A stretch of 14,356 nucleotides of DNA, taken from a virus. Its lineage: Duplodnaviria > Heunggongvirae > Uroviricota > Caudoviricetes. A model generated the notes under the pieces. The model made no database searches. It saw nothing but the letters and a program-made list of their open reading frames with translations, and had not been told where the DNA came from. The stretch is from IMG/VR virus record IMGVR_UViG_2526164619_000014; one strand, 5' to 3'. A program made the position numbers and the translations under genes. Positions 1,050 through 14,356 of the stretch are shown piece after piece. Position 1 is the stretch's first letter. Each line of letters opens with the position of its first letter.

Positions 1050-1982
1050 ATGGACAACGACAAAATTGATCAACACAGCGACGAAATTGAAGTTGAGAGC
1101 GAAGAAAAAGAGCGCGGCAAAAAAATAGAAATAGATGAAGATCGACTCCCCTCCCGGGCGATGGCAATTCATGAACATATCCGCCAGGATGGTGAAAAAG
1201 AGCTGGAACGCGACGCAATGGCACTACTGTGGTCAGCCATTGCGGCGGGTCTGTCGATGGGCGCTTCGTTACTGGCAAAAGGGATATTTCATGTCGAACT
1301 GGAAGGCGTGCCGGGCAGCTTCTTGTTGGAGAATCTCGGTTATACCTTTGGTTTTATTATCGTCATTATGGCCCACCAGCAATTATTTACCGAAAACACC
1401 GTGACTGCGGTACTACCCGTCATGCAAAAACCGACAATGAGCAACGTCGGCTTACTTATGCGATTATGGGGCGTCGTGCTGCTGGGTAATATTCTCGGGA
1501 CAGGTATTGCTGCATGGGCATTTGAATATATGCCTATCTTCAATGAAGAAACTCGCGATGCATTTGTCAAAATCGGCATGGATGTGATGAAGAACACCCC
1601 CAGCGAGATGTTTGCCAACGCGATCATTTCCGGCTGGCTGATCGCCACTATGGTTTGGATGTTTCCTGCAGCGGGTGCGGCAAAGATTGTGGTGATTATA
1701 TTGATGACCTGGCTTATTGCACTGGGTGACACCACCCACATCGTTGTCGGTTCTGTAGAAATCCTCTATCTGGTGTTTAACGGCACGCTGCACTGGAGCG
1801 ATTTCATTTGGCCCTTCGCACTACCTACTTTAGCGGGGAATATCTGCGGCGGCACCTTTATCTTCGCGTTAATGAGTCATGCACAGATCCGTAACGACAT
1901 GAGCAACAAGCGCAAAGCAGAAGCACGCCAAAAAGCAGAACGTGCGGAAAACATTAAGAAAAATGATAAAAACCCAGCATAA
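1050..1982 (+). CDS. yfdC: formate/nitrite-transporter-family inner-membrane protein YfdC
   Basis: 310-aa ORF with acidic N-terminal tail followed by several hydrophobic helices. Position between mlaA and the argW-type tRNA matches the recalled E. coli K-12 order mlaA-yfdC-argW. Confidence 0.8.
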   Translation: MDNDKIDQHSDEIEVESEEKERGKKIEIDEDRLPSRAMAIHEHIRQDGEKELERDAMALLWSAIAAGLSMGASLLAKGIFHVELEGVPGSFLLENLGYTFGFIIVIMAHQQLFTENTVTAVLPVMQKPTMSNVGLLMRLWGVVLLGNILGTGIAAWAFEYMPIFNEETRDAFVKIGMDVMKNTPSEMFANAIISGWLIATMVWMFPAAGAAKIVVIILMTWLIALGDTTHIVVGSVEILYLVFNGTLHWSDFIWPFALPTLAGNICGGTFIFALMSHAQIRNDMSNKRKAEARQKAERAENIKKNDKNPA

Positions 1983-2057: not shown

Positions 2058-2132
2058 GTCCTCTTAGTTAAATGGATATAACGAGCCCCTCCTAAGGGCT
2101 AATTGCAGGTTCGATTCCTGCAGGGGACACTT
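2058..2132 (+). tRNA. argW: tRNA-Arg (anticodon CCU), argW type; the genomic 3' end reads A-CTT rather than A-CCA
   Basis: Cloverleaf folded by hand: acceptor GTCCTCT (2058-2064) pairs with AGGGGAC (2122-2128); D arm GTTA/TAAC; anticodon stem AGCCC/GGGCT with loop CTCCTAA, anticodon CCT at 2091-2093; T arm GCAGG/CCTGC with loop TTCGATT; discriminator A at 2129. Bases 2130-2132 are CTT. Confidence 0.85.
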
Positions 2133-2304
2133 TAAAGACCTTTCTCTACATTTCACTTCATTACATAACCACTTAAAAAAACAGTAAGTTATCACCGAAT
2201 CGGCCTGATTTTCATTTCAGTTAATTTCATGACATTACAACCTCGTGATGGTATAAGTGATGGTATTCCCCAGTTCGATATGCAGATACCATCAATTTAC
2301 CAAA

Positions 2305-3590
2305 ATGAGTACAGATATGGCCATTAATGTGCTTTCCCCCAAACAGATAGAAAACGCCAAGCCGAAGACCAATGATTACAAACTTACCGATGGAGGGAGT
2401 TTGTATCTACTGGTACGAAAGACTGGTGGAAAATACTGGCGTATGAATTATCGTTTTGATGGAAAACAAGTGACATTGGCATTAGGGGTCTACCCAGATG
2501 TCTCACTTGCAACAGCGCGGAAACGGCGTGATGAAGCCAGGCAACTACTAGCCGATGGTCGTGATCCTCGCGAAGCAAAGAAACCCAAAAAGGAAGACCC
2601 AATTTCCCCCACGTTCGAGAGTGTTGCCAGAGAGTGGCATAGTGGAACGATGGGGCATCCTGAGTGGAAAGAGATCACCCGTAAAAAATTCTCCGAGAAA
2701 TGGAAAACCACCTCTTTCCTGCCATCGGTTCAAAGCCTATCGATACGCTCAAAACCCGTGACTTGATGCCGATGCTGGTTGAGATGACTGAGAAAGGAAT
2801 TGGTGCCACAACGAGCCGTGTAAAAACCACTATGACGAGCATCTTCCGTTATGCCGTGCAACGTGGAATTGTCGATTACAACCCTGCCCACGATCTAAAA
2901 GGTGCAATTACGGCCCCCAAAGTACGACATCGCCCCGCACTACCTCTCGAACGTTTACCTGAACTGTTAGCGAAAACGAGAAGTTACACGGGAAGACCAT
3001 TGACTCGCCTAGCAGTTCTCTTTTCCCTGCACACTTTTGTGCGATCCAGCGAACTACGACATGCCAGATGGGAGGAGATCGACATTGAAAATGGGCTATG
3101 GACGATACCAGGACAACGTGAAGAGATCGCAGGGGTTAAATTCTCAGATCGGGGTGCAAAGATGGGGGCTGCTCATTATGTCCCGCTATCTAGTCAGGCT
3201 ATCGGGGTACTGGAGGATATAAGGAAAATCAGTGGTGAATATCTGCTGGTTTTTCCCGGTGACAGCAACCCATATAAACCGATGAGCGAAAACACAGTTA
3301 ATAAAGCACTGCGAACGATGGGTTACGACACTCAAACTGATGTTTGCTTGCATGGGTTCAGGGCGATGGCCTGCTCTGCACTGACCGAATCAGGACTCTG
3401 GTCACGCGATGCAGTTGAACGGCAGATGAGTCACCAAGAAAGAAACGAAGTGCGGGCAGCATATGTGCATCTTGCGCAGCACATGCAGGAACGCCGCAGA
3501 ATGATGCAATGGTGGTCTAATTATCTGGAACTAAATAAGGACGAATTCCATGCTCCTTATGACTTATCAGGTATTAACATTATCAATTAA
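2305..3590 (+). pseudogene. int: P4-type tyrosine integrase, reading frame broken in an A6 run (2683-2688); N-terminal part 2305..2766, catalytic part 2700..3590
   Basis: N-terminal ORF carries the P4-integrase-type N-terminal domain (..YKLTDGGSLYLLVRKTGGKYWRMNYRFDGKQ..). Second ORF carries the tyrosine-recombinase catalytic domain (..HGFRAMACS.. and C-terminal ..AAYVH..). Adding one A to the run at 2683-2688 gives a continuous ..RKKILREMENHLFPAIG.. reading. Start is ATG 2305 or 2317; the 2257 extension of the ORF track is unlikely. Lies directly 3' of the tRNA, as expected for the integrase of a tRNA-inserted element. Confidence 0.85.
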
Positions 3591-5709: not shown

Positions 5710-5850
5710 CAAAATACCGCTGAAAACGGAGTAATCCACGATGAATATTTCAAACGGGCACAACGGTGCTCAGGGCCACACTTTGCCTGAAAAACACAAT
5801 ACCGGTGCTGAGGTGTACTGGCAATAGCGGACACTACCATTTGTTCTTTT

Positions 5851-6713
5851 TTAAGCAGCCATCTGATGATATTTTTCCCTGAAGGCTGCCGGGGAGATAT
5901 TTCCCAGACGAGAGTGACGACGCTGACGATTGTAGAAAATCTCAATGTATTCCCGTATTACTGAGATGGCTTCATCCCGGTTATTAAAACGATAGTGGCT
6001 CAGGCTCTCATTTTTCAGCGTTCCCCAGAAGCTTTCCATCGGAGCGTTGTCGTAACAGTTACCTTTACGCGACATTGATGTTTTCAGACCAGACTGCTCC
6101 TGTATGACCCGGTAATCGTATGCGCAGTACTGTGAACCTCGATCAGAGTGGTGGATTAGCCCGGCAGGTGGGCGCTGGCTCCTGAGCGCCATAAACAGGG
6201 CTTTACCTGTCAGCTCTTTTGTCATGCGCTCTCCCATGGCGTAGCCGACAATTTCGCACGTATAAACATCTTTAATGCCAGCGAGGTACAACCATCCCTC
6301 CTGTGTGGCAACATACGTCAGGTCCGCCACCCAGACCTGATTTGGTGCTGTAGGAGCGAACGTCTGGTTCAGCAGATTTGGCGCAACTGGCAGATTGTGG
6401 TTCGGGTTCGTAGTCGCTCTGAACTTGCGTTTCTGCTTACAGCGTAGCCTTAGCTCCTTACGAAGACGTGCCAGTCGGTCACGACCAACGATGATGCCAT
6501 TCTCTGCCAGCTCCGTCTGGAGCCGCCGGGTTCCATATGTTTCGAGTGCGGATATGTGCCACCTTAATCTCCAGTTTTAGCCGCCCATCACTTTGTTTTC
6601 TGTCTGAGGGTTCATGCTGTACCCAGTTGTAATAACCGCTCCTGGATACACCAAATACCTGACACATCGCTTCAATGGGAAATTGTTGTCGCCATTGTTC
6701 GATTAACGCGTAT
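5851..6713 (-). pseudogene. IS3-family transposase OrfB (DDE catalytic domain); reached from orfA by the usual -1 frameshift but carrying an additional frame break near 6540-6545
   Basis: N-terminal part in the -1 frame (..AEKYALIEQWRQQFPIEAMCQVFGVSRSGYYNWV..IRTR). Catalytic part 5851..6330 (..HHSDRGSQY.., ..GNCYDNAPMESFWGTLKNE..) is in a different frame. Minus-strand read CGCACTCGAAACATATGG is consistent with one extra base or two missing bases. Confidence 0.7.
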
Positions 6714-7005
6714 TTTTCAGCGACTCCTGTGCAAAATACGCTGTTGCTTTTTTTAATATATCTCGCTCAAGGCGAGCTTCATTTAACGCCTTACGCAGTT
6801 GCAGAATTTCAGATTCCAGTTCAGCCACCGTGCGGGAACCAGGAGTACCGAGCCCTTTTCTGGCGGCGGTAACCCATTGTCCTAAAGTGCCTTCAGGAAG
6901 GGATAATCGGGAAGCGCCTTCACTGATCGAAAGTTGATTTTCAAGAACCGTTCTGACAGCTTCGGCTTTGAACTCTTTAGAGTAACGTTGGTTTTTTCTG
7001 CTCAT
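6703..7005 (-). CDS. IS3-family transposase OrfA (HTH / leucine-zipper part)
   Basis: 100-aa ORF MSRKNQRYSKEFKAEAVRTV.. ending ..KKATAYFAQESLKNTR, the typical IS3-family OrfA C-terminus. Overlaps the orfB frame in -1 at the A-rich motif GAAAAAT (about 6707-6713). Confidence 0.9.
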   Translation of the reverse strand: MSRKNQRYSKEFKAEAVRTVLENQLSISEGASRLSLPEGTLGQWVTAARKGLGTPGSRTVAELESEILQLRKALNEARLERDILKKATAYFAQESLKNTR

Positions 7006-7285
7006 TATTAGCTCCTTCTGATGCCATTCTATTTCAGGAAGGAGTGTCCGTTAAACTCAGGCTACCTCATGCTTTTGCCTATGGGTTGTCAGAGGACAGT
7101 TTCGGAAAGCTGACCCGCGCAAGAAATGCCTGCGACATGCTCCAGCTTCTCTTTTCTGAATACCCGTCTCAGGCCGGAGCACTGGACGCAGGCTGTGCGC
7201 CTGGTGTCGCCGCGCTGATGGAGTACCTGCTGGCAGATTTGACGGATATTGCACACAGCTGCGCACTGATTGAAGGAGGTGCCAG

Positions 7286-10738: not shown

Positions 10739-11482
10739 ATGAACAATACCGCAGTAAATAACAACCTTTCCACTTTTCCGGCTGTAACGCAGCGGGCACT
10801 GGAAACCATGAACACAGCCAGAAACGCATGGCTTGAAGCACGTCGTCAGCAGAAAGCGGCAGCGGATAATATTGCGACAATCCGCCAGCGTCGCGCTGAA
10901 ATGGAAGCCACGACGAACACACTGAATGAGGAGTGGCGCACGCTGTTTCGTGAAAGTCAGGGCGTGGTCTCAAAGGAAATGAAAAAACTGCGCACGGAAA
11001 TTGCGCTGGGACGAGAAACGCTTGAGGATTTTGATGAGCTGCTGGCGGCTCAGGAAAGCGAAAATGCACTTTTGCCGCAGAAAGCTGCAGAATTAGCCGG
11101 AAAGTATATCCACGCGCATAACATTCTTGTGGATATTCGCGCAAAACAAATCTGGGAGGATTTTATGCAGTCGCATGGAAAAGCGCTTATTCAGACGCTG
11201 AGCCTGCTTAAATCCACAATGGGCCGGGAAGCCAGTGCCGTTGTGGGTGTGGTGAATTCAGTTAATGACCCGGACACAGTGCTGAAAGACTTTATTCATA
11301 AACATATCACCAGACCGGCTCTGGCTAACGATGCGATGCCTGAGCAGGACCCGGTGTTTAAACTGGCGGGAGTTGCCCCGGATTATGCGGCGCGTCTGGA
11401 TTTCAGTAATCAACTCTCTCCGGCAGCTATGCATAAAATTAAGGTTCGTCAGGAACTCGCTGAGAAGGAGAAAGCAGTATGA
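10739..11482 (+). CDS. sid: Sid-like protein (P4 capsid size-determination / external scaffold homologue)
   Basis: 247-aa alpha-helical, charged protein; size and position (first gene of the late operon, followed by Psu-like and Ogr/Delta genes) fit P4 Sid. N-terminus resembles the Psu-like protein downstream. Assignment by context and recalled similarity only. Confidence 0.5.
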   Translation: MNNTAVNNNLSTFPAVTQRALETMNTARNAWLEARRQQKAAADNIATIRQRRAEMEATTNTLNEEWRTLFRESQGVVSKEMKKLRTEIALGRETLEDFDELLAAQESENALLPQKAAELAGKYIHAHNILVDIRAKQIWEDFMQSHGKALIQTLSLLKSTMGREASAVVGVVNSVNDPDTVLKDFIHKHITRPALANDAMPEQDPVFKLAGVAPDYAARLDFSNQLSPAAMHKIKVRQELAEKEKAV

Positions 11483-12030
11483 CGGCCCGAGGCACGCCTG
11501 ACCAGGCACTTACCAGTTTTCGGAATGCCCGTATTCTGTGGGCCGGACATAGTGAGAGCCGAAAAGCCGTTGAACAACAGATAACATCTCTCCTCGCTGC
11601 CACAGAAAAACCAGCAGATTATGCCCGACAGCTCGAATTACTGCGGGAACGTCTGGATGTGCTGAAATGGCAAATTAACTGTGCTGCGCGCGAATGCATT
11701 TACGCGCAGCATTTACTGATGGAGGCCTGCACAGAAGCCGCTCTCAGCAATTTTATGCAGGCGAATGGGGCAGCCCTGACATCTGCACTGGCTCCGTTCC
11801 TGAAGGGGCGCGGAGGGGTTGACGTTGCGTCCCGTATATTACGCAGTGCTCTGGTTCGCCAGCTGGCAATAACACCGCCTGAAATTGCCGGGGATTATCG
11901 TGAGATCCTGGATGAATCCGGTTTGATACCTGACCCCGGGATGATTCGTGATTGCCAGGACTCTTACACCCCGGCACAACATCTGCATTTTCAGCAACGC
12001 CTGAATGACATTAACGATATACAGGAGTGA
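11479..12030 (+). CDS. psu: Psu-like protein (P4 polarity suppression protein homologue)
   Basis: 183-aa ORF, ATGA-coupled to the preceding gene. Contains ..KWQINCAA.., ..FMQANGAALTSALAP.., ..YTPAQHL.. which match motifs I recall from P4 Psu (not verified by search). Confidence 0.6.
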   Translation: MTARGTPDQALTSFRNARILWAGHSESRKAVEQQITSLLAATEKPADYARQLELLRERLDVLKWQINCAARECIYAQHLLMEACTEAALSNFMQANGAALTSALAPFLKGRGGVDVASRILRSALVRQLAITPPEIAGDYREILDESGLIPDPGMIRDCQDSYTPAQHLHFQQRLNDINDIQE

Positions 12031-12308
12031 TTTTAAGGGCACTTAAATGTCCGGAATGCGGTACAGTTGCACACGCCAGAACAGCAGCCTATGAAGCTCC
12101 GTCAGTTAAACGCTCGTGGTATCAGTGCCAGAATCTGGAATGTTCCTGCACATTTACGGCACTGGAGAGTGTGGATAAGATAATCATGAAACCCCGGCGC
12201 AATGAACAGGAACCAGACAAATCACACCCCCCGGTAAAACAACAGCAAACGCTCAATCGCTATGGCTCCGCGTCAAAACTGTCAAGCCGTCAGCAGATTC
12301 CTGTCTGA
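12027..12308 (+). CDS. Ogr/Delta-family zinc-finger late-gene transcriptional activator
   Basis: ..CPECGTVAHART..YQCQNLECSCTFTALESV..IMKP.. is the Ogr/Delta signature (C-x2-C ... C-x4-C). Apparent GTG start overlapping the psu-like stop (GTGA). Confidence 0.85.
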   Translation: MILRALKCPECGTVAHARTAAYEAPSVKRSWYQCQNLECSCTFTALESVDKIIMKPRRNEQEPDKSHPPVKQQQTLNRYGSASKLSSRQQIPV

Positions 12309-12495: not shown

Positions 12496-12791
12496 GTCTG
12501 TTAAGCGAAGCGGGCAGGCGTGCGGGGCTGTTCGCATCAACATAAAAATAACGGGCTGATATAGTTATAAAATCAAATGAACTCTTTTAGTACGACATGG
12601 GTATGTGCGCCAGTAGCAACGTCAGCCCCCAAGCTTTCTATTGTTCTTTTCTGTTGTACCATCAATACGTACCGATTAGCTCCTAAGCATCAATATCAGT
12701 TTGAACGTATTGCTTTGAACTAATTTTTAGATGATTTTTTTCATTAAAAATTATAATGTTGTAGATAAAAAGAGAATCTTATAGAGGCGTT

Positions 12792-13480
12792 ATGTCAAAT
12801 AAAGTTGATGTTTTTTGAGCCGAGTTAGCCATGTATCACAGTTTGTATTGGTGGCATTTGCTATTTTTGGATATTTTTATACAGTAAGACCAATTTACCA
12901 AAAGGAACTTTTATCAGAAGAAATTGCAAAAAAAGAAGTTGAATTAAATAAATTAAAAACTGCAATGGAAAACTCCCAAAAATTTATAGAGAATAATAAA
13001 ATCTTACGAAAAGAATTGGAGGGAAGCATTGCCAAACTTGATTTACAATACAAAGAATCAGAAGAAAAATTAAATTCAATAAATTCTGAACTAAGAAAAA
13101 CTTTAAATGAACTAAATAAACAAAAGACCATTGCCAAAAGAGCGGTCAATGCAAACAACAAGAATCTTGAATCTGTTTTCTGGGAGAATTTTTCGGGGCT
13201 AGTTGGAGTAGTTTATATTTCTAAGAGCACAGATTTTGTGAACAATACACTGGGTGACGCCAAAACAGCCTATAATACTCCTAGTAATTTATATATATCT
13301 CCTTATGATGCAATTAATGAAGCATTAAAAAATGGCAATCATAACTTTATCTCAAGTTCAGAAAATGTCCCTGAAAATATCCGCAACAAAATTCTAGCAA
13401 AGATCCGTCGCGCTATTGAAAAAAATAAGATTTCATTAACAAAAAACCTATCGGTTTTGATGAAAAAATTAATAGCCTGA
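12792..13480 (+). CDS. cargo protein A: membrane-anchored coiled-coil protein of unknown function (about 229 aa if read from ATG 12792 through a one-base frame break in the T6 run 12811-12816; the ORF track gives TTG 12815..13480)
   Basis: AGAGG Shine-Dalgarno then ATG 12792 encodes MSNKVDVF and stops at TGA 12816-12818; the long ORF continues in the -1 frame from 12815. The joined N-terminus MSNKVDVFLSRVSH.. aligns with the in-frame N-terminus of the downstream paralogue. One hydrophobic helix (FVLVAFAIFGYFYTV), then a K/E-rich coiled-coil-like region. Strongly AT-rich. Confidence 0.6.
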
Positions 13481-13921
13481 TAAAAACTATAGAGTCAACT
13501 AAGTTACGCAAAAATGAAAACGAAATAATGAAAAATAACACTGCAGAAAGAGAACTATCATCTTATATTTTCCTGATAAATGGTCAATCAAGAATCCGCG
13601 CCATGGATTTCTTAAAAGACATTCAACATTTAGACTAATATTGGATATCTTATAATGAATACTAATACTAAATTTGATTTATGGTTGATTAGAGTAAGTT
13701 ACATTGCCCAAGTTGGATTGTTTTTTTGACAACCTTTACAATATTTTACACAGTAATTCCGATATACCAAAATGCAAATCTGCAGGAATCAATAGCAAAA
13801 AAGAAATCGAATATAAACAATTACAAGACAAAGAAAAACTCTATATTTAAAGTTAAGAAAGGAATATTCAAGAAAATATGTTGTTGATGCAATCTCCCAA
13901 TGTTCTCCAACAGAAATACTT

Positions 13922-14356
13922 ATGCGTCAACCATCTGAAGATGACAGTAAAAAATCACATGATGTAAGAATGAAGGAATTAAAAACATTTTTAAACAAAG
14001 ATATAACCAGTTGCTTTGAAAAAACTTTTTATAGCAACCCTTACATTAAGGAATTAAGAGACACTGATCAACAAAATATTCTTCTTAAAATTAAAAATTT
14101 ATCCCCCACTATAACTAAACTACATGAAAAATATAAAGCAGAATTTGATGACGATAGCAAGTTATTGAATACTGGAAAAGAAAAATCGACAAGATTAAAA
14201 GAGGTGGAAGATTATTTAATAGGAATAGGAGGTTACACAGAAAACAGCAAAAAGGATTTTGAAAACTCATACATAGAATCTGGAGCATATGACTTGGTTG
14301 TAAGGTATGGTTTTGAAGTCAACGATCTATTTTCCAAAACCATCAGAGACAATTAA
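13922..14356 (+). CDS. cargo protein B, C-terminal 144 aa as an intact ORF; the full paralogous gene probably starts at ATG 13655 and is interrupted by three one-base frame breaks (T run 13721-13727, A run 13797-13802, A run 13834-13838)
   Basis: Reading 13655..14356 with one base added at each of the three runs gives MNTNTKFDLWLIRVSYIAQVGLFFLTTFTIFYTVIPIYQNANLQESIAKKEIEYKQLQDKEKTLYLKLRKEY.. which aligns with cargo protein A over about 70 residues. The C-terminal half is unrelated to protein A. Stop codon is the last three bases of the window. Confidence 0.5.
   Translation: MRQPSEDDSKKSHDVRMKELKTFLNKDITSCFEKTFYSNPYIKELRDTDQQNILLKIKNLSPTITKLHEKYKAEFDDDSKLLNTGKEKSTRLKEVEDYLIGIGGYTENSKKDFENSYIESGAYDLVVRYGFEVNDLFSKTIRDN

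Follow-up and report, generated by a model that had tools for sequence, protein, structure and literature searches.

What is the function of the two genes that close the stretch of DNA recorded as IMGVR_UViG_2526164619_000014? This stretch of 14,356 nucleotides (nt), hereafter the window, is filed as a virus of the Caudoviricetes and is an Escherichia coli chromosomal segment with a P4-like satellite integrated at tRNA-Arg. The two genes, here called A and B, occupy the final 1.6 kb of the window, directly 3' of the satellite gene delta, and are annotated as hypothetical proteins in all seven E. coli genomes carrying intact copies. The architectural and evolutionary description of A and B given below can be held with high confidence. 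As for their function, it is proposed from their location, and at chances somewhat short of even, that A and B would form a two-gene envelope-level anti-phage or superinfection-exclusion module protecting the host of the satellite.

The list of open reading frames (ORFs) of the window shows A and B as fragments because their coding sequences are interrupted by single-nucleotide deletions. A base-by-base comparison of the A+B stretch with the intact copies revealed six such deletions and three substitutions; two intact loci with RefSeq annotation (L001 and L002) served as the reference for gene order and alignment. Five of the six deletions are coding, with two in gene A (12810 and 13440) and three in gene B (13720, 13796 and 13833), while the one at 12745 is intergenic. 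A seventh, at 2682 in an A7 run, splits the satellite integrase into two ORFs. A previous reading of the window, made from the letters and their ORFs (the sequence-only reading), had reconstructed the N-terminal frames of both proteins correctly, as they are identical to residues 1-55 of intact A and 1-57 of intact B. It had let gene A end at 13480 and placed a spacer of about 175 nt between the genes; the frameshift at 13440 hides the last 52 codons of A, which ends at 13638, and the spacer measures 16 nt.

Over the whole satellite (about 11 kb aligned with L001) there are 7 indels and 10 substitutions. All seven indels are single-base deletions in A/T runs of at least six, and insertions are absent. 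The cargo holds 13 runs of this length in 1.66 kb, of which six are affected; in the backbone, one is affected out of 10 in 9.3 kb. Since every indel removes one base from an A/T run, substitutions are few and intact copies exist in seven genomes, the frameshifts are most likely systematic homopolymer under-calls made during sequencing or assembly and not a mark of gene decay. It seems improbable that A and B are true pseudogenes in the source strain, created by homopolymer slippage (for instance in a mismatch-repair-deficient lineage) in a locus that is a decaying remnant. Such decay would fit five frameshifts across two genes, a cargo unusually rich in A/T runs and an insertion of an IS3-family element in the same satellite. 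However, a single frameshift suffices to kill a gene, and five independent ones amid three substitutions are unlike decay; identical events occur in the integrase and in an intergenic run, and all seven are deletions. A comparable shortfall is seen in another assembly, NZ_CM166345, in which the cargo copy is likewise 2 bases short and annotated as three ORFs. Defence pseudogenes are also rare in P4 satellites, according to a survey published in 2026 in Nucleic Acids Research (PMC13586616). Cargo this rich in A/T runs is prone to sequencing under-calls, and possibly also to genuine slippage. Apparent pseudogenes that arise from homopolymer errors in AT-rich cargo are a trap for the automated annotation of defence islands.

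The intact proteins share an N-terminal module, as the sequence-only reading had claimed. BLASTP aligned residues 4-56 of A with residues 6-58 of B without gaps (26 of 53 identical, or 49%; 64% positives; E=1e-12). The Smith-Waterman score of A against B was 120-125, a value that none of 2000 shuffles reached (22-43 +/- 4-7), with z values of 11 for the whole proteins and 18-22 for the N-terminal 55-75 amino acids (aa). When the A family (31 sequences) was compared with the B family (18 sequences) profile against profile using hhalign, columns 5-73 were matched with 99.8% probability and nothing beyond them. The remainders of the two proteins could not be aligned, as their score of 41 (against 36.5 +/- 6.1 for shuffles, z=0.74) was reached by 435 of the 2000 shuffles. 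The predicted complete divergence after about 70 residues is thereby confirmed, with detectable homology ending at about column 70. The nucleotide sequences had also been described as alignable; this holds within the module, over some 90-160 nt, and fails elsewhere (101 of 159 nt identical, or 63.5%; a local alignment of about 90 nt; z=8.8 against codon shuffles). Both proteins carry the juxtamembrane motif Y-T-V-x-P-x-Y-Q-x-x-x-L-x-E-x-I-A-K-K-E. The LRKE that had been listed among the shared motifs lies 6 residues out of register in the two proteins and is a chance likeness.

Both proteins consist of a short basic N-terminal tail, one transmembrane (TM) helix, a long single helix and an all-helical head. 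In the module of A, the basic tail and the TM helix are followed by a juxtamembrane helix that reads ...FGYFYTVRPIYQKELLSEEIAKKE.... AlphaFold2 modelled both proteins with a predicted local distance difference test (pLDDT) score of 87. The model of A shows an uninterrupted helix made of the TM segment and about 123 further residues before the all-helical head begins, and in that of B the TM segment is followed by about 50 helical residues. Two lines of evidence bear on the orientation of these proteins in the membrane, both taken from 134 non-redundant representatives of the family described below. The N-terminal tail is more basic than the flank that follows the TM helix in 116 of them and less basic in 5, with a mean net charge of +5 where the tail exceeds 20 residues. 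Cysteines after the TM helix number zero in 24 representatives, two in 76 and four in 22, so that an even, non-zero count (98) is far more frequent than an odd one (12). By the positive-inside rule and the pairing of cysteines, the proteins are predicted to lie N-in/C-out in the inner membrane, with cytoplasmic tails of about 12-30 residues and with stalks and heads in the periplasm. The head of B is probably disulfide-bonded: C84 (13901-13903), whose codon ends the stalk immediately before the head, and C121 (14012-14014) are invariant in all 19 B-family sequences. If the modelled stalks are straight, at 0.15 nm per residue they would hold the head of A about 18 nm and that of B about 7.5 nm from the membrane. 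The option of a cleavable signal peptide, with A-F-A in A, was considered as well and rejected, given that the h-region is too short and that B has no A-x-A motif.

The module is not confined to this pair. A profile of 55 columns was searched against 1.84 billion representative proteins, which gave matches in at least 727 clusters (at 50% identity) at E<=1e-3 and in 464 at E<=1e-10. In the best 150 matches listed, the first ~140 residues hold the module, its best-scoring stretch starting at residues 1-92, and protein length is mostly 200-350 aa. The family is accordingly defined by an N-terminal basic tail, a single TM helix and YTVxPxYQxxxLxE within the first ~140 residues, usually in a protein of 200-350 aa, and both A (module profile E=4e-30) and B (E=4e-18 and 1e-6 on the two sides of a frameshift) belong to it. 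The A family has about 50 homologues with full-length relatives down to 24% identity, and the relatives of B likewise extend to 24%. Such relatives occur in Salmonella, Enterobacter, Citrobacter, Klebsiella, Pantoea, Cronobacter, Kosakonia and metagenomes. Further named sources of the module are Pseudodesulfovibrio, Marinicella, Variovorax, Thiobacillus, Pseudomonas, Lysobacter and Burkholderia, together with metagenome-assembled genomes assigned to the Alphaproteobacteria, Porphyromonadaceae and Acidobacteriota. All credible sources are diderm (Gram-negative) lineages, and every source name reads hypothetical protein. A third search of a large database with the module profile returned short gene fragments only and added little. 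Judged from these alignments, the module defines a large, previously undescribed family.

The conservation of the module is uneven with that of the rest of the protein. Within each family the mean identity is 73-80% in the module and 31-37% in stalk and head, and the residues Q, P, Q, L and E of the module are invariant. This is more than a passive anchor needs, which would suit an abortive-infection membrane effector, in which the single-TM module oligomerises into a pore or lesion after the periplasmic heads have sensed infection, so that the cell is depolarised and phage entry is not blocked. The TM proteins of P4 and P2 hotspot systems are also generally read as suicide effectors (PMC9122126). 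Such an effector is nevertheless thought unlikely here, as no cytoplasmic sensor or enzyme partner was found and the cytoplasmic tails are so short; moreover, the variable part faces the periplasm, where the cues of late infection are scarce.

When the post-module parts of the 134 representatives were clustered at E<=1e-5, three large head classes emerged (one of 40 members; the B-type of 38, with two cysteines; the A-type of 19, mostly cysteine-free), along with about 25 small ones. The suggestion of a common membrane-anchor module on different C-terminal parts is supported, and this membrane-anchor and juxtamembrane module recurs well beyond A and B, on about 28 C-terminal classes in total. 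Three members (P0051-53) have a canonical module on a B-type head. In P0110 and in a Klebsiella indica gene (L017 6980-7687) the module itself is a mosaic of the canonical TM segment AIFGYFYTVRP and the B-type juxtamembrane segment YQNASLQES, which in P0110 precedes a B-type head. These mosaics imply recombination inside the 55-aa module, and on this sequence comparison module and head are reshuffled in evolution. The idea that the B-type flavour of the module is specific to paired genes was discarded, as the B-head class forms a continuum (33 with that flavour, 17 canonical, and mosaics).

These classes also bear on the origin of the pair, which the sequence-only reading had taken for a diverged tandem duplication with further paralogues possibly lying beyond the window. 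A and B fall into two old, widely distributed head classes, which comprise 19 and 38 clusters (50% identity) among the top 150 representatives, and a scan of 37 loci with the module profile found tandem pairs in enterobacterial loci only, the gene being single in every other lineage. The tandem pair is therefore read as an assembly of two members of different subfamilies and not as a recent local duplicate. No further paralogue was found within 14 kb on each side in L001 or within 6 kb on each side in L002; a hairpin and, after it, chromosomal genes come next to the pair in the intact loci. A weak match to the module profile (E=0.006) at 1367-1546 of the window, on the minus strand and antisense to yfdC, was judged to be noise caused by hydrophobic composition.

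The genomic surroundings of the family are the main source of evidence on function. The pair was found after sid-psu-delta of P4-like satellites, including three viral contigs (L028-L030); in Klebsiella pneumoniae between proA and a MalT-like gene, adjoining a NACHT/STAND NTPase gene and, in some strains, an insertion sequence; and on a metagenomic contig with Colicin_immun, Cloacin_immun and HNH genes and a PAAR-Pyocin_S/CdiI (CdiI_5) pair. A and B are therefore kept as a unit across three unrelated settings, namely the P4 hotspot, the Klebsiella islet and the toxin/immunity islet. In another satellite a B-type gene follows Ogr_Delta. Single members were found directly after, and overlapping, the integrase at the ends of P2-like prophages with a CII (CP76) regulator (L032-L036), and between terminase and integrase (L037). 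Others adjoin PD-T7-3-like and PDC-S06 genes, or an integrase and a type II operon of the cyclic-oligonucleotide-based anti-phage signalling system (CBASS). The K. indica member adjoins a TOPRIM primase gene, and a Pectobacterium member a RES-domain gene. In Pantoea piersonii (L015 2396-5003) a single A-type gene adjoins Ogr/Delta and a cluster of HEC-03B, HEC-03A and RNA ligase genes; the HEC-03B there is an AAA_15/21 ATPase (E=4e-129), and the RNA ligase falls outside the HEC-03 models of PADLOC. Overall, mobile-element or defence loci account for 11 of the 14 independent contexts, and the family travels with integrated elements and islands and not in the virions of cultured phages. On plasmids A had two weak, module-only matches, in Burkholderia. 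For two loci of high G+C content (L020 and L022), crude ORF calls gave no Pfam match, and they were not used.

The third setting of the pair raises another possibility, namely that A and B are immunity factors against bacteriocins or type VI secretion effectors that act in the periplasm. They would then be inner-membrane-anchored periplasmic binders carried as orphan immunity cargo, comparable to the colicin M immunity protein. Apart from the company of the immunity and toxin genes in that one islet, the heads are small, helical, predicted to be periplasmic and disulfide-bonded, and lack an enzymatic domain, and their diversity fits an arms race with diverse toxins. We consider this distinctly unlikely as the function of the pair.

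Searches of A and B against Pfam, NCBIfam, PHROGs and PADLOC returned sub-threshold coiled-coil noise only, and ten long or diverse members of the family had no domain match in Pfam. Sequence-profile searches of the Protein Data Bank with both families gave nothing below E=0.01, and a comparison of structures found no structural relative. The accessions WP_000066845.1 and WP_001095698.1 and the motifs of the module were absent from 8 million full texts and from the supplements of Rousset 2022. The sequence-only reading had likened the two genes to polymorphic effectors. No toxin, enzyme or other known domain was found in either C-terminal part, nor was there a C-terminal toxin fold, an adjacent immunity gene or an N-terminal secretion or trafficking domain; the N-terminal module is a signal-anchor. 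The PF04977 family (FtsB/FtsL/DivIC) gave no match to A or B, and the distant member P0132 scored 18.7 bits against a gathering cut-off of 28.9.

A role in the life cycle of the satellite or prophage, such as spanin-like disruption of the envelope at lysis or exploitation of the helper phage, was weighed against the same searches. An N-terminal TM helix followed by a periplasmic coiled coil does resemble the Rz-type i-spanins, and the PHROG 89 family (phrog_89, Rz-like spanin) gave a weak match. However, this match (E=0.0084) is not significant and is confined to the coiled-coil segment, and no Pfam spanin family matched. No ORF with a signal peptide and lipobox, as expected of an o-spanin lipoprotein, was found in L001 13601-16100, where the two matches to the search pattern both start inside gene B; holin and endolysin genes are likewise absent from the vicinity. 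Furthermore, the family is absent from sequenced phage genomes, has members at non-phage chromosomal sites and sits here in a variable slot and not in the conserved backbone. Such a role is thus very improbable.

The anti-phage reading is drawn from two observations. One is the record of the slot: the P4 psu-int locus is a reservoir of antiviral systems (Rousset et al. 2022, PMC9122126), and 6 of 8 randomly chosen P4 cargo loci with unknown genes protected against phages (PMC13586616). The other is the repeated occurrence of the family in mobile and defence contexts. During delivery of a phage genome, the variable heads in the periplasm would bind either a component of the phage or an envelope protein that it uses. 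Oligomerisation of the conserved TM and juxtamembrane module, or its docking on a conserved partner in the inner membrane, would block entry or trigger failure of the membrane. A wider proposal is that the YTVxPxYQ module marks an unrecognised, widespread superfamily of Gram-negative envelope-level immune proteins, in which a near-invariant TM/juxtamembrane engine carries swappable periplasmic heads on stalks of set length. The long-stalk A and short-stalk B of the Enterobacteriaceae would then provide a two-tier interception of phage genome delivery at two depths of the periplasm. We regard this wider proposal as doubtful.

Several findings weigh against the anti-phage reading. Three contexts (two Desulfovibrionales chromosomes and one alphaproteobacterial contig) have no mobile-element or defence neighbours, and a tblastn search of 50,697 sequenced phage genomes found no homologue of A or B. 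PADLOC-DB 2.0.0 gave no significant match: the best for A were JetC (E=0.021) and LeoB (E=0.18), both in the coiled coil only, and B had none. No enzymatic or pore-forming domain was found, so that the effector step is conjectural, and the topology is derived from sequence statistics. Of the eight P4 cargo loci mentioned above, two gave no protection (PMC13586616). The pair is also rare, the A+B stretch being present in 7 of 5,426 complete E. coli genomes, at 99.4-99.5% DNA identity.

The positions of the genes, their parts and the remaining features of the window are collected in Table 1.

Table 1. Features of genes A and B and of the surrounding window (positions are those of the window unless stated otherwise).
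Feature	Position	Strand	Basis or remark
Gene A	12792-13638	+	282 aa intact, WP_000066845.1; aligned to L001 14094-14942
N-terminal module of A, aa 4-56	12801-12958	+	hmmsearch with module profile E=4e-30; BLASTP against B E=1e-12
Single TM helix of A, aa 15-32	12833-12886	+	only hydrophobic segment; within long helix of AlphaFold model
Stalk of A, one continuous helix, aa 33-155	12887-13255	+	AlphaFold2 model m837b6312384e, helix 2-142 of P0001 (= aa 15-155 of A), pLDDT 87
Head of A, all-alpha, aa 156-282, no Cys; conserved motifs WEN, PY.AI, NVP, EKNK, DF	13256-13635	+	
Gene B	13655-14356	+	234 aa intact, WP_001095698.1; aligned to L001 14959-15663
N-terminal module of B, aa 5-58, over two window reading frames	13667-13827	+	hmmsearch: 13667-13726 E=1e-6; 13717-13827 E=4e-18
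Single TM helix of B, aa 17-34	13703-13755	+	top hydropathy window; helix 6-84 in model ma4e8ed11a585
Stalk of B, ~50 residues	13756-13903		
Head of B, all-alpha, aa 85-234	13904-14353	+	model pLDDT 87; no structural relative found
1-nt deletions	12745, 12810, 13440, 13720, 13796, 13833		each within an A/T run of true length 6-8
mlaA	1-756	minus	
yfdC	1050-1982		
tRNA-Arg(CCT), attachment site	2058-2130	+	ARAGORN and annotation
Satellite integrase, frameshifted at 2682	2257-3590	+	annotation
sid-like, psu, delta (ogr/Delta)	10739-12308	+	RefSeq annotation of L001, L002

The satellite carries genes for an integrase, a hypothetical protein, AlpA, a DUF5375 protein, a TOPRIM/DUF927 primase, a Sid-like protein, Psu and Ogr/Delta. 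The genes sid, psu and delta form the upstream border of a variable cargo slot. Lying between psu/delta and the attachment site of an element with integrase, AlpA, primase, sid, psu and delta, A and B have the position of P4-like hotspot cargo. The G+C content of the cargo (12700-14356) is 29%, against 51% for the satellite backbone. With its short spacer and a hairpin 3' of B, the pair constitutes a two-gene operon. The stop codon of B forms the final three bases of the window, and the perfect 12-bp hairpin (CCTCCTCTATTT / TAATAGAGGAGG, with a 4-nt loop) lies 13 nt beyond the window end (L001 15676-15703); it is likely the terminator of the operon.

Within the satellite backbone, an IS3-family element occupies 5810-7069 of the window (orfA 6703-7005, minus strand; orfB fragments 5851-6330 and 6479-6667) and disrupts the gene for a 94-aa hypothetical protein. 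The element is missing from intact L001, where both of its flanks map to the same 4 bases, which indicates a target-site duplication. Further homopolymer errors may be present in the split orfB.

Only a few mechanisms are known by which phages are stopped in the periplasm, ahead of DNA entry or in its course, and each of these is found in a small family unrelated to the others. The family described here comprises at least 727 clusters and recurs in defence hotspots, with a module conserved across Proteobacteria and the other Gram-negative lineages sampled and with heads that vary fast. If it does protect against phages, it would open a general way to study immunity at the envelope and the phage components that are exposed in the periplasm. 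Independently of its function, no model of the family exists in Pfam, NCBIfam, PHROGs or PADLOC, and one built from the present alignments would annotate hundreds of hypothetical proteins.

By position the pair belongs to the class of P4 hotspot cargo, and it falls outside every described defence, spanin, divisome or polymorphic-toxin family tested. Other cargo of the psu-int hotspot occupies the same slot after sid-psu-delta at a tRNA gene and is likewise AT-rich, patchy and rapidly exchanged. Some validated systems of the hotspot also contain TM proteins; these pair the TM protein with an enzyme (reverse transcriptase-nitrilase, HAD hydrolase or TIR), whereas A and B, both predicted to be bitopic with a periplasmic part, include no enzyme. 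Nuclease, kinase, ATPase or channel domains are present in the six systems named in 2026 (Crouga, Bandua, Aernus, Toga, Reve and Hailong; PMC13586616), and none of these systems resembles A and B.

Similar architectures are known from other envelope proteins. The Rz-type i-spanins are type II (N-in/C-out) proteins of the inner membrane whose coiled coil is periplasmic, an arrangement predicted for A and B too, and conserved cysteines are a further likeness. A and B differ from them in being about double the size of Rz and having a globular head, and in lacking an o-spanin partner or lysis cassette. FtsB, FtsL and DivIC form small bitopic pairs with an N-terminal TM helix and a periplasmic coiled coil, which heterodimerise through both parts. 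Their pairing is a plausible model for how A and B might associate through their related modules. Polymorphic toxins share with the A/B family a conserved N-terminal module, variable C-terminal regions and the reshuffling of the two; they differ in that the module of A and B is a membrane anchor and not a secretion or trafficking domain, and that about three head classes dominate the A/B family.

The closest parallel to the proposed function is superinfection exclusion. P22 SieA, HK97 gp15 and T4 Imm/Sp act at the envelope, where they stop the entry of foreign phage DNA, and the site of action proposed for A and B would be the same. Like A and B, these are small membrane proteins, enzyme-less and encoded by mobile elements (compare PMC10883804). 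There is no detectable similarity in sequence or fold between the two groups, and the exclusion proteins are not known to have the YTVxPxYQ module or stalks of 50-120 residues. By this analogy, A and B would work most like the superinfection-exclusion membrane proteins of prophages, without homology to them. The slot itself was already known as a defence hotspot (PMC9122126), and A and B are uncharacterised cargo of it that may serve as envelope-level defence.

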